Assembly: GCA_951406725.2 (NCBI GenBank)
Contig: OX597815.1
Location: 144,894,001-144,958,000 of the forward strand
Source of the DNA: Octopus vulgaris
Taxonomy: Eukaryota
Length of the DNA stretch: 64,000 bases
Direction of reading: 5' to 3'
Both the position numbers and the translations under genes were made by a program. The notes beneath the pieces are model-generated. The model was not told where the DNA came from and searched no databases. It saw only the letters and a program-made list of their open reading frames with translations. Below, piece after piece: positions 36,140 to 42,100 of this stretch; the first letter of the stretch is position 1; each line of letters starts with the position of its first letter.

Positions 36140-39100
36140 GTAAATTCTTTAAAATAATTACATTTTTGTCTTTCATTCGGTCGTTTGTCTCGTACAGTGT
36201 CAGAAGACTTTAAATATGCGATGATATTTTGAGTTTTGTTCTTTTGCACACCATAAGCACACGTACAAAAGAAGCTTATCGATATAAAATTCCTGAAGAA
36301 ATGGAGTTGCCTTCGAGCAAAGTCTGCGACCCGTTCTTGATTCTCAGCTGCTGCTAATTCCACTTCTGTTTTATAGAAAGGCATGTACACCACCAAATCC
36401 TCTTCACTAAATTTGTGGTTATATACTCTCTTCAGAAATTGAAATATACTGTATTTTATGACAAGATGCATATTCGCCCCGGATCCTGTATGCCTTGCTA
36501 TATGTTTTTATGCACTAAAATGGGGTGAGTCTTTTATGCCAACAAATACGATAATTATTAAATTGGCATTCTAAATATATGAAAGCATCCGATAAATAAG
36601 TCCACGTGAGAGGGGTAAACATTGGTTGAAGTTTCTGATTTCTGATGCACAGACATACATGTTAACAGCGTATCTCTAATGGTTAAGGTATGCGTTTATA
36701 CAATTATCTTTTATCATTGTCTGAAACTGATGCAATATTTTCATTTAATGACATTTTAAAATAAAGTTTCATATCTAATTCCTATCGGATACAGAATGTT
36801 TTTAGTTTTGAAATTCTTAGATGCAAATGAAGTTACTTCTCCATAAATGTTATAAGTGTTTCATGTTATAAACCTCATTCCTTACAAATCTAAGTTCATA
36901 TTTTCCCGCCTACAAAAACATACATTTCATACTTTATAAGAAACAGCAGTGATGTCTGACCGCTGGATATATATATATATATATATAGATGGGGAGGATT
37001 CACAAAAAAACAAAAAACGAAGACAGGTGGTGTAGACAACAAACTGATGTATTAGTATAACGCTCGGGAAGTGAAAAAGTATGTACGTGTGTGTGTATAT
37101 ATATATATACATACGTCATCAGTAGTTTAAACACACTAAAACATTTGAGCAGTAATATATTTAGAAGTTTGTTATGGCCGGCCAGAGAGTGACCATAAGT
37201 GCGAAACCAATGGTCACTCTCTGATCGGGGTGTGTGATGTATATGTATATATTTAAGGTAAAGTGTCCCTTTGTTTCTTTTACTACTTATCTCCCCCTTA
37301 ATTTTTATTTACTTTTTTAATATAACCATACTGAACAATAATAAATCTCTAAGCGAGGTATAAACAGTAACTGCTCTGTAATATAAGCGGGATCAGCCAT
37401 CTGAATGTGGCTAGGGACAGGGCGGGGTGGTGGGGGTGTTACTGATGCATTTAGCCCCAGGCGACTATAGACGTCACTAGAAGAGCCGACACCATCACGG
37501 TGTCCTTGCTAGCCTGTAAAGGGAGATCAGCCTCCCCGAAGATACGGATGCTACACACGGACTGGTTTCGAGGTGGTCGCCTCTCGTCAGCGCATGGCAA
37601 GCACCGTCCTTCGTTGAGGACTTCCTCTACAGGCTAGAAATATATAGATTTTCACAGTAAACACAGTCACTGGCGTCGAAAATCTGTTCGATAACAATAA
37701 TAAATCTCTAAGCGAGGTATAAACAGTAACTGCTCTGTAATATAAGCGGGATCAGCCATCTGAATGTGGCTAGGGACAGGGCGGGGTGGTGGGGGTGTTA
37801 CTGATGCATTTAGCCCCAGGCGACTATAGACGTCACTAGAACAGCCGACACCATCACGGTGTCCTTGCTAGCCTGTAAAGGGAGATCAGCCTCCCCGAAG
37901 ATACGGATGCTACACACGGACCGGTTTCGAGGTGGTCGCCTCTCGTCAGTGCATGGCAAGCACCGTTCTTCGTTGAGGGACTTCCTCTACAGGCTAGAAA
38001 TATATAGATTTTCACAGTAAACACAGTCACTGGCGTCGAAAATCTGTTCGATAACAATAATAAATCTCTAAGCGAGGTATAAACAGTAACTGCTCTGTAA
38101 TATAAGCGGGATCAGCCATCTGAATGTGGCTAGGGACAGGGCGGGGTGGTGGGGGTGTTACTGATGCATTTAGCCCCAGGCGACTATAGACGTCACTAGA
38201 AGAGCCGACACCCCGTGATGGTGTCGGCTCTTCTAGTGACGTCTATAGTCGCCTGGGGCTAAATGCATCAGTAACACCCCCACCACCCCGCCCTGTCCCT
38301 AGCCACATTCAGATGGCTGATCCCGCTTATATTACAGAGCAGTTACTGTTTATACCTCGCTTAGAGATTTATTATTGTTATCGAACAGATTTTCGATGCC
38401 AGTGACTGTGTTTACTGTGAAAATCTATATATTTCTAGCCTGTAGAGGAAGTCCCTCAACGAAGAACGGTGCTTGCCATGCGCTGACGAGAGGCGACCAC
38501 CTCGAAACCGGTCCGTGTGTAGCATCCGTATCTTCGGGGAGGCTGATCTCCCTTTACAGGCTAGCAAGGACACCGTGATGGTGTCGGCTCTTCTAGTGAC
38601 GTCTATAGTCGCCTGGGGCTAAATGCATCAGTAACACCCCCACCACCCCGCCCTGTCCCTAGCCACATTCAGATGGCTGATCCCGCTTATATTACAGAGC
38701 AGTTACTGTTTATACCTCGCTTAGAGATTTATTATTGTTATCGAACAGATTTTCGATGCCAGTGCCTGTGTTTACTGTGAAAATCTATATATTTCTAGCC
38801 TGTAGAGGAAGTCCCTCAACGAAGAACGGTGCTTGCCATGCGCTGACGAGAGGCGACCACCTCGAAACCGGTCCGTGTGTAGCATCCGTATCTTCGGGGA
38901 GGCTGATCTCCCTTTACAGGCTAACAAGGACACCGTGATGGTGTCGGCTCTTCTAGTGACGTCTATAGTCGCCTGGGGCTAAATGCATCAGTAACACCCC
39001 CACCACCCCGCCCTGTCCCTAGCCACATTCAGATGGCTGATCCCGCTTATATTACAGAGCAGTTACTGTTTATACCTCGCTTAGAGATTTATTATTGTTA

Positions 39101-42100
39101 TCGAACAGATTTTCGACGCCAGTGACTGTGTTTACTGTGAAAATCTATATATTTCTAGCCTGTAGAGGAAGTCCCTCAACGAAGAACGGTGCTTGCCATG
39201 CGCTGACGAGAGGCGACCACCTCGAAACCGGTCCGTGTGTAGCATCCGTATCTTCGGGGAGGCTGATCTCCCTTTACAGGCTAGCAAGGACACCGTGATG
39301 GTGTCGGCTCTTCTAGTGACGTCTATAGTCGCCTGGGGCTAAATGCATCAGTAACACCCCCACCACCCCGCCCTGTCCCTAGCCACATTCAGATGGCTGA
39401 TCCCGCTTATATTACAGAGCAGTTACTGTTTATACCTCGCTTAGAGATTTATTATTGTTATCGAACAGATTTTCGACGCCAGTGACTGTGTTTACTGTGA
39501 AAATCTATATATTTCTAGCCTGTAGAGGAAGTCCCTCAACGAAGAACGGTGCTTGCCATGCGCTGACGAGAGGCGATCACCTCGAAACCGGTCCGTGTGT
39601 AGCATCCGTATCTTCGGGGAGGCTGATCTCCCTTTACAGGCTAACAAGGACACCGTGATGGTGTCGGCTCTTCTAGTGACGTCTATAGTCGCCTGGGGCT
39701 AAATGCATCAGTAACACCCCCACCACCCCGCCCTGTCCCTAGCCACATTCAGATGGCTGATCCCACTTATATTACATACTGAACAATTACCTATATAATG
39801 TATGTGCACGCATATGTATTCTTATTTTTCATCGTTTTGTTTCTTGGTAGTATTGCATTCAACGAAGTTTCAAAAAAGTTCGTCGTAAATGTAATGACCG
39901 GCTCACTGACGAAATTCACTGCACCCTTTGTCATTGTGTTAGTACCCAAGTCGTAGATGTACGACGAAATTTTTTGCCACTTTATAGTGGACCGTACTAT
40001 AAAACTATTAATGAATAAAAAACAAAGATGCTACAAATGTAAATTCATGACTTTTCCAAGTAATATATCAGATAAAGTCACCAGGTTAGTGAATTCAGTG
40101 AACCAAAAGGAAAAGACAACTCGGGAGCAGCAAGTTTTAACAAATATCGTATTAGTTCCTACCACTTCCCAATGTCCTCCAGTCACTTCCAGTAATTATA
40201 GAGCTGTTTCATTTCCCCCGTTGAAGACAACTTTATCCCTTTACTTTTCTCTCTGTCTCTTACACTGTGGAGTCATACTTGAGGTCTCTCTATGCGTACA
40301 ACTTTTCCAAGCTCTCACACTGGTACAACTTTTCAAGATCTCACACTGCTTCTTAACTGTCTGCACAGCCAGGAGCTACGCATGTGCTTAACTCTATAAG
40401 ACACACTAAACACTTTCAGCCACTTTCTCATCTCCAAACTCTGTCTTTACTCATCCACCACTGTCTCTGCATACATTTGATTTGTCCTGTCACTACCTGA
40501 ATAAGCCAGAACACCATACATCTTCTCTTGAAGTGATTTTCTCTATCATAATTTTTTTTTTCATTTTTTTTGGTTTTTTTTTTCAGGACAAATGGAAATT
40601 GCTTCCAGCATTTTTGAAAGTGAAAGGATTGGTGAAACAACATATAGATTCCTTCAATTACTTCATTAATGTAGAGGTATGCATAGTTTTATGTTAATTA
40701 CTCTTGTTAACCTTGTTATAGGTAGAGACGTAGCTGTATGGTTAAGATGCTTGCCTGCTGACCATGTGGTCTTGGGTTCAGTTTCACTGTGTGGCACCTT
40801 CACCATCTTCTATGAAAGCCACAGCGCATCCAAAGCCAGAAATCCTAAAACAACCGAGGAATTATGGAATGCCCTTCAGGAAGAATGGAATAAGATCACC
40901 CAGCAAGAAATTGAAAATTTTATTTCCTCATACAGTCGAAGATGTCAAAGTGTGATTGAAGCTAAAGGGCTTCACACTAAATATTAAATAATTCCAGTAT
41001 TCTCTGTCATTTTTTATTATTTTGTTATTTTTTCAACCGTTCTGATCAAAGGTTTGGTGGAAGGTTTTAATTCAAAACTTATGAAAACAAGACATTTGTA
41101 CTCAGAGCCAGTTTCAGCCAGGTTGGTAACGAAAGGGTTAAGCAATGTTCATCATCATTTAACAACCATTTTCCATGCTGGTATGGGTTGGATGGTTTGA
41201 CCAGAGTTGGCCAGGCCAGGAGCCGCACCAAGTTCCAGTTGTCTGCTTTGGCATGGTTTCTACAGCTGAATTCCCTTGCCAATGCCAACCACTTTACAGA
41301 GTGCACTGGGTGCTTTTTGCATGGCACCAGCACCAATGTTCTAAAACAATACTTTTAATCAATATTTCTAATTAATCATCATCATCATCATCATTTAACG
41401 TTCGTTTTCTATGCTGGCATGGGTTGGACAGTTTGAATGAGGTCTGGTGATATATTACCTTACATGGAAAGAAGTGTGGTAGGCGGCAGGAAGGGCATCT
41501 GGCCATAGAAACTCCAAGTTAGAAATGCCAAATTTGGGTATCTGAGCCAGATAAGCTAGGTTCCTGCATGGGTCCGAGTCAAACTGTTTTAAATAGTTAA
41601 CATATATATAACTCCTACCAAATGGTTTGTGTGTCTCTTTCTGTCGCTTGTCCATCATCATCGTTTAACGTCCATTTTCCATGCTGGCATGGGTTGGATG
41701 GTTCAACTGGGGTCTGGGAAACCAGGAGGCTGCATCAGGCTCCAGTCTGATCTGGCAAAGTTTCTACAGCTGGATGCCTTTCCTAACGCCAACCACTCCG
41801 TGAGTGTAGTGGGTTCTTTTTACGTACCACTGGCACAGGAACCAATCAGGTGGGCTTGGCATTGATCACGTTTGGATGTTGCTTTTTATGTGTCACCGGC
41901 ACAGGAGCCAGTCTGGGGGTACTGGCATCGGCCACATTCGGATGGTGCTCTTTATGTGCCACCAGCACAGGAGCCAGTCAAGGGGCACTGGCCTCAGCTA
42001 CGATATTAGTTTTACTTGACTTAACAGGTCTTCTCAATCATATCATATTGCATGACGCATCAGGGGGTACTTTTAACTGGGCCTTTAAAAAAACAATAGG

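Follow-up and report, generated by a model that had tools for sequence, protein, structure and literature searches.

Inverted retrozyme arrays of Octopus vulgaris end at two fixed sites, probably through Penelope-like reverse transcription primed on both target strands

How does a tandem repeat come to lie in two opposed orientations inside a single target-site duplication (TSD)? The question is raised by an array in a 64,000-nucleotide stretch of the Octopus vulgaris genome (contig OX597815.1, positions 144,894,001 to 144,958,000, assembly GCA_951406725.2; hereafter the window). Its 359–360-bp unit carries a minimal hammerhead ribozyme motif and, judged by sequence, is an animal non-LTR retrozyme (LTR, long terminal repeat). 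We find that arrays of this kind end at two fixed positions of the unit, termed sites A and B, and we consider it probable that they are inserted by the enzyme of a Penelope-like element (PLE) that cuts the target strands 13 bp apart and primes at A and B.

The window array is bracketed by two copies of the 13-mer CATACTGAACAAT (Table 1); no third copy is present on either strand of the window, and the match between the two extends 0 bases beyond them on both sides. Unit positions are numbered from u1 at window position 38933, and unit R3 serves as the reference for arm differences. The left arm, 879 nt with its sense on the minus strand, comprises u8–360, u1–360 and u1–167, and the right arm, 1564 nt, comprises four units and u1–124; together they show 12 differences from R3 (10 distinct) in 2443 nt. 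The arms abut by their 5′ ends (u8 and u1) with zero overlap, inside a hairpin of the unit, GACACC-gtgat-GGTGTC (u357–u13), with two C's beyond what a clean fold-back of that hairpin gives. The duplication overlaps element sequence by AACAAT (6 bases) on the left and CA (2 bases) on the right, and neither array end (u167 or u124) lies at the predicted hammerhead cut, u301/302. An earlier note, made from these letters alone, had described one TSD around two opposed blocks with their 5′ ends joined at 38212/38213, the same overlaps, a hairpin junction and ends away from the cleavage site; every part of that description was recovered.

Insertions end once at each of two sites

We assembled 70 loci of the window's subfamily: the window, 39 drawn from the best unit matches (40 of 1550 candidates were scored) and 30 found through the exact hammerhead motif (118 matches, 100 of them listed). 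Their end positions, among the features that the earlier note had proposed to tabulate for all copies, follow a simple rule. Two-armed loci account for 45 of the 70, and in 41 of these 45 one arm ends at site A (u119–124) and the other at site B (u163–169), about 45 bases further on. No locus is A/A or B/B; the other four combine a B end with an off-site end. A coin-flip at each locus would yield 41 A/B pairs with probability 0.5^41 = 4.5e-13, a figure that takes the loci as independent, which L093 and L094 may not be. Either arm may be the longer one (the A arm in 21/41), and the remaining 25 loci end at A (12), at B (11) or oddly (2).

The rule extends to a subfamily 77% identical to the first (2542 motif matches), in which 14/14 and a further 13/13 two-armed loci are A/B (27/27). 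Only loci with two arms whose ends could both be viewed were scored there; one-armed, degraded and end-out-of-view loci are left out of the count. Pooled over three families, 93 of 98 two-armed loci are A/B, none is A/A or B/B, and five are off-site. The unit's best match to a (TA)n target, TATATAT at u214–220, ends no arm, indicating that it is the RNA, and not homology by itself, that fixes where the sites lie.

Targets are mostly (TA)n, with (TA)5 found within 20 nt on both flanks at 33 of the 41 A/B loci. Where the target is not a long (TA)n run, at six loci read by eye, the TSD measures 12–13 bp (13 bp at the window, 12–13 bp at the five others, two of which are partly TA-rich and give weaker calls), and it overlaps the element by 0–6 nt per end. 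Of 12 ends at targets other than (TA)n, also read by eye, about 4 lack microhomology.

Loci L093 (G000:C16:9854300-9859400) and L094 (C16:10013000-10018100) share an identical inversion junction (u312/u173) and two private variants. Their A and B ends are swapped, their flanks are unrelated and they lie 159 kb apart, which suggests ectopic conversion or re-mobilization of a junction-containing RNA.

An autonomous element with the same rule

The same genome contains a separate PLE family, typified by locus L149, with a 1307-aa open reading frame (ORF) encoding a reverse transcriptase (RT) followed by a GIY-YIG domain; the Pfam matches fall below the curated cut-offs. The ORF carries a CX2-5CxxC linker and internal cysteines in the GIY-YIG domain, which are features of Neptune and Nematis (PMC8557442). 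The family is young, with matches 99–100% identical, and has a hammerhead-like motif of its own. Its insertions end either 19 to 26 positions (A′) or 72 to 85 positions (B′) past the ORF. One end of each kind was seen in 17/17 resolved two-armed loci (20 fetched) and in 8 more among L122–L141, a set chosen by a query ending at B′; one small insertion is off-rule. The link to Penelope elements drawn in the earlier note is supported, and the local PLE obeys an equal end rule in 25 of 26 loci. At all 17 resolved loci the two PLE arms overlap on the RNA.

Direct contact between the two elements is seen in a chimeric insertion. At L051, L061 and L072 (among the 70) and at L161, a retrozyme arm stands head-to-head with a 5′-truncated PLE arm through CTGC, the retrozyme arm ending at A and the PLE arm at the distal site B′; L072 is rearranged and its retrozyme end is off-site. 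The flanks are common to all four copies, pointing to one event followed by segmental duplication. Because the unit and the PLE share no significant similarity, the partnership between them is argued from insertion anatomy and this one chimera. No ORF combining RT and GIY-YIG domains was found in the window, and no PLE ORF adjoins the second-subfamily loci L162–L201.

Three PLE loci (L143, L157 and L160) have arms exceeding one 4.5-kb unit, partial tandems that imply that copying by the autonomous element, too, runs on beyond its own ribozyme. At L149:4085-8014 a long stretch rich in Asn precedes the RT in the intact 1307-aa ORF and brings to mind the Asn-rich inserts described for Penelopes of Adineta vaga (PMC3846280); the 3′ untranslated region holds a (TA)n run.

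A proposed two-ended insertion reaction

We propose that a staggered cut of 12–13 bp would leave 3′ overhangs on the target, and that each target 3′ end would prime reverse transcription, the first at site A, the other at site B. Two RT active sites may each be held at one RNA site, the PLE ORF product being a predicted dimer (PMC11167929). Each RT would then copy upstream through several units of uncleaved or circular RNA, and the two complementary DNA (cDNA) ends would be joined bluntly or through short microhomology. In vitro, both strands are nicked and extended by a PLE protein, which starts at a pair of internal RNA positions on either side of the tail (PMC11167929); the genomic data add that each of two start sites is used once per insertion.

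Variants agree between the two arms in 601 of 619 polymorphic-site comparisons (39 loci), where 2000 permutations give 38% discordance, and rare variants are common to both arms in 10 of 41 loci. Both arms thus derive from one source. If a single cDNA folded back, the second arm would have to be contained in the first, a condition broken in 17 of 41 retrozyme and 5 of 17 PLE loci. Together, the shared arm haplotype and the 17 retrozyme loci incompatible with fold-back make priming from both target strands likely. The earlier note's reading of a single retrotransposition event in which both target strands primed is supported.

More tentatively, PLE integration as a whole might be an obligatory two-ended reaction, in which a dimeric RT-endonuclease with one subunit per RNA site, perhaps holding two RNAs, rolls round a circular retrozyme RNA and writes whole arrays in one step. 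Were this so, the tail of the pseudo-long terminal repeat (pLTR) and the inverted arm would both be products of that one step.

Circular or linear template

The predicted cut site is crossed by 68 of 82 arms, by 16 of them twice or more, and in 208 of 208 pieces the crossing is free of insertions and deletions. Arm 5′ ends show no pile-up at the cut (3 of 82 arms near it, 2.5 expected). These crossings and the lack of a pile-up point to a continuous template. A clustering of 5′ ends near u1–45 was attributed to selection by the full-unit query and set aside; the motif-picked set does not show it (4/36, by eye).

A continuous template could be a circle or a linear multimer. Young arrays are uniform over both arms: 10 full units at L202, 7 at L220 and 5 at L221, with 0 substitutions among the units of an array, against medians of 3.5–8 differences between loci. 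Such uniformity, with the fixation of rare variants in both arms at 10 of 41 loci, the outcome expected from a bottleneck of one unit, favours a circular monomer, which we hold to be the most likely template, with a modest degree of confidence. The alternative, that both strands prime on one or more uncleaved linear read-through transcripts of a tandem array and that arrays then grow by unequal exchange, is less probable but a serious competitor. RNA left unprocessed is the main substrate in vitro (PMC11167929), and 7 of the 10 multi-unit arrays tested, the window included, have variants shared by only part of their units, a pattern not to be had from a monomer circle by itself. The uniform arrays, moreover, have neighbouring loci differing by 0–1 bases, so that uniform linear sources are possible. 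Linear copying, however, cannot lengthen an arm beyond its source, and the young arrays reach about 12 units without losing uniformity over both arms. The minus arm of L039 carries variants with a three-unit period, a pattern that a linear template would accommodate and that may reflect either a trimer template or a later three-unit duplication.

At the window locus, 352A is present in R2 and R4 only and 185T (a CpG) in R1 and R2 only, neither occurring elsewhere in the assembly. Each being private to two window units, they suit linear templates, and they point to duplication or conversion after insertion; some such turnover of the window units is likely. A dimer circle as the source of 352A in R2 and R4 was rejected, as both left units covering u352 lack it. 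The earlier note's preference for a circular template over later unequal crossing-over is accordingly not supported at the window itself, where these two variants point to turnover, and the circle is favoured by other, younger loci.

Weighing the alternatives

Several points weigh against two-ended insertion by a PLE enzyme. Choosing loci by best match or exact motif over-represents young copies, and cleavage, circularization and priming are all deduced from genome sequence. Arm-to-arm identity could partly reflect later conversion. The four-copy chimera might instead stem from a pair of adjacent insertions that a deletion joined, and comparison of the unit with the PLE found, this being the only PLE family compared, gave no significant similarity (best E 0.022 over 17 nt). 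At the window's right flank, where contigs from 4 of 24 listed runs were checked, the match of the X4 and X6 contigs (about 2% diverged in the flank) ends at 39776 and is followed by 29 letters outside the element alignment. These two fit an empty site but fall short of proving a single 13-mer, so the empty allele foreseen in the earlier note, a lone CATACTGAACAAT, has consistent contigs in two of four runs. A search of the assembly for an empty paralogue found none, the right flank being single-copy, and a motif from the loose contig ends had no match there. Last, the window junction forms an almost perfect palindrome within a hairpin native to the unit, and the window's arm lengths permit fold-back.

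Fold-back would need a single priming, after which the cDNA 3′ end self-anneals (here through GACACC/GGTGTC), copies back and is resolved at the other site at its far end; a related self-priming idea has been published (PMC3846280). A common arm haplotype is expected of this route as well, and 6 of 41 junctions are near-palindromic. Permutations give 3.1 such junctions (P = 0.085), an excess that is not significant and on which we also rejected the junction hairpin as a family hot spot. With the two extra C's at the window junction, and with arm lengths that make it impossible in the 17 retrozyme and 5 PLE loci already counted, fold-back is refuted as a general route and overall appears improbable.

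Classical L1-type twin priming by the enzyme of a long interspersed nuclear element (LINE), starting at the RNA 3′ end and then at any internal microhomology, would account for a TSD around two inverted fragments and for the 6-nt and 2-nt overlaps at the window. There is no poly(A), however, both start sites are fixed, the A/B ends refuting this route, and some ends lack microhomology, as noted above. PLE arms also overlap on the RNA (17/17) instead of flanking a deletion, a comparison that the repeated retrozyme unit does not resolve. We therefore give this route very little credence. Of the twin-priming reading in the earlier note, the TSD and the inversion stand, priming by both strands is supported, and the L1-type mechanism is not, the second start being fixed (41/45 A/B).

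We give equally little credence to an assembly or read artefact (a fold-back read) or a pair of separate insertions side by side. Palindromes are known trouble spots for assembly, and the junction is known here from the assembly alone; yet each arm stops at its own position in the unit, the variants of the two are not the same, a single TSD surrounds both, and 93 A/B loci recur in three families. The right junction is bridged by an X1 contig (34 element letters, 0 differences), which may be the assembly source and so not independent; an X2 contig reaches 14 bases into the element, below the bridging limit. The fold-back read that the earlier note held up as a refutation is contradicted by the different arm ends, the arm variants and the genome-wide recurrence of the anatomy.

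Hammerhead and class of the unit

Animal non-LTR retrozymes are described as tandem, non-coding units of 150–450 bp with a type I hammerhead and a TSD above 4 bp (PMC7229834; 10.64898/2026.07.22.740005). The octopus unit is alike in all of these: it is tandem and within the length range, its longest ATG-initiated ORFs measure 30 aa for one strand and 37 aa for the other, and the window TSD exceeds 4 bp. By inspection, each unit holds a minimal type I motif made up of CTGACGA (u271–277), stem II and GAAACCGGTC (u292–301). Its helix III, with one pair and a palindromic tetraloop, resembles the description of axolotl HHR_Amex1 (PMC7229834). Across 9 copies, taken from two subfamilies, pairing is kept in 94.9% of stem cells and C3-G8 is replaced by U-A in 2 copies; covariation is not above shuffles (103/500). 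Rfam returned nothing at gathering score in the window, only chance microRNA matches on the palindrome. GC content is exactly 50%, at the edge of the below-50% range described for animal retrozymes.

The hammerhead motifs of the abundant subfamily (L192, L202, L213 and L218) have non-standard cores, CCGACGA, CCGATGA and TTGATAA, and their stem II has a T-T at its base. In all four runs the contig depth over window positions 39697–39758 (u45–106) is more than 10 times that over most of the unit, an excess suggesting that further relatives share that cis region.

Relation to known systems

Retrozymes have been proposed to be PLE derivatives (preprint 10.64898/2026.07.22.740005). The octopus unit departs from the published descriptions in its inverted arms and fixed ends and has no significant similarity to the pLTR of the local PLE; its GC content is 50%. 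A term search of the available text of PMC7229834 and of that preprint found no mention of inverted arms or fixed ends.

Insertions of endonuclease-containing (EN+) PLEs have partial tandems, an inverted 5′-truncated copy, a tail at one end and a TSD (PMC8557442, PMC3846280, PMC11167929), and a (TA)n target bias is known for Neptune, Naiad and Hydra PLEs. The octopus arrays resemble them in the inverted arm beside a tandem arm, the one-end tail, the TSD and the (TA)n bias. They differ in lacking an ORF and in a tail of about 45 nt (about 50–60 in the local PLE) against 30–40 in published PLEs. The published tail is described as optional or often at one end; here there is one per insertion, in 93 of 98 two-armed loci.

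In L1 twin priming the second site is variable and the arms flank a deletion, and dual priming by two RNAs has also been proposed (PMC2837659). The octopus insertions are similar in that both strands probably prime, two inverted cDNAs lie in one TSD and the junction has little or no microhomology. They are unlike it in the absence of poly(A) priming, the fixed second site, the overlapping RNA segments and in being the majority outcome and not a variant. Overlapping arms and the PLE/retrozyme chimera are closer to the dual priming proposed in PMC2837659.

The element class and the outline of the anatomy are thus already in print, and the strict A/B rule adds a mechanistic detail to a known class. 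We did not find a strict one-A/one-B rule, such a rule in retrozymes or a PLE/retrozyme chimera in the literature, although subscription papers or supplements may hold the A/B rule. The origin of the tandem and inverted structures of PLEs and of their tail is posed as an open question in PMC8557442, and animal retrozyme integration has so far been inferred only from phylogeny and ribozyme type. The A/B rule and the 12–13-bp stagger tie retrozymes to PLE machinery through insertion anatomy, and they make exact predictions for the in vitro PLE assay.

Features of the locus

Table 1. Coordinates of the array in the window and of the chimeric insertion.
Feature	Position	Strand	Remarks
Left TSD copy, 13 bp	37327..37339	+	Last 6 bases also match the element
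Left arm, 2.4 units	37334..38212	-	5′ terminus u8; 3′ terminus u167, at site B
'Tail' (u125–167), the stretch between sites A and B	37334..37376	-	Closes the left arm only; PLE tail as in PMC8557442 and PMC11167929
Hammerhead motif, left unit L2	37554..37596	-	G298A disrupts the palindromic loop
Hammerhead motif, left unit L1	37913..37955	-	
5′-to-5′ inversion junction	38196..38236	.	Palindrome, 7-nt spacer; break at 38212/38213, no overlap
Right arm, 4.3 units	38213..39776	+	5′ terminus u1; 3′ terminus u124, at site A
Minimal type I hammerhead motif, R1	38477..38519	+	CTGACGA, stem II, GAAA-CCGG-TC; predicted cut after 38513; no Rfam match
Hammerhead motif, R2	38837..38879	+	
Hammerhead motif, R3	39197..39239	+	
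Hammerhead motif, R4	39557..39599	+	
Right TSD copy, 13 bp	39775..39787	+	First 2 bases also match the element
Chimeric insertion, retrozyme arm (A) and PLE arm (B′)	L051:3028-5942		

Elsewhere in the window, positions 51164–51284 hold a decayed relic of the retrozyme repeat family, about 72% identical to the second subfamily. A family of 66-bp tandem repeats is spread across the window at 13567–13777, 41812–41992, 47549–47737, 49015–49239, 58023–58335 and 63241–63389.

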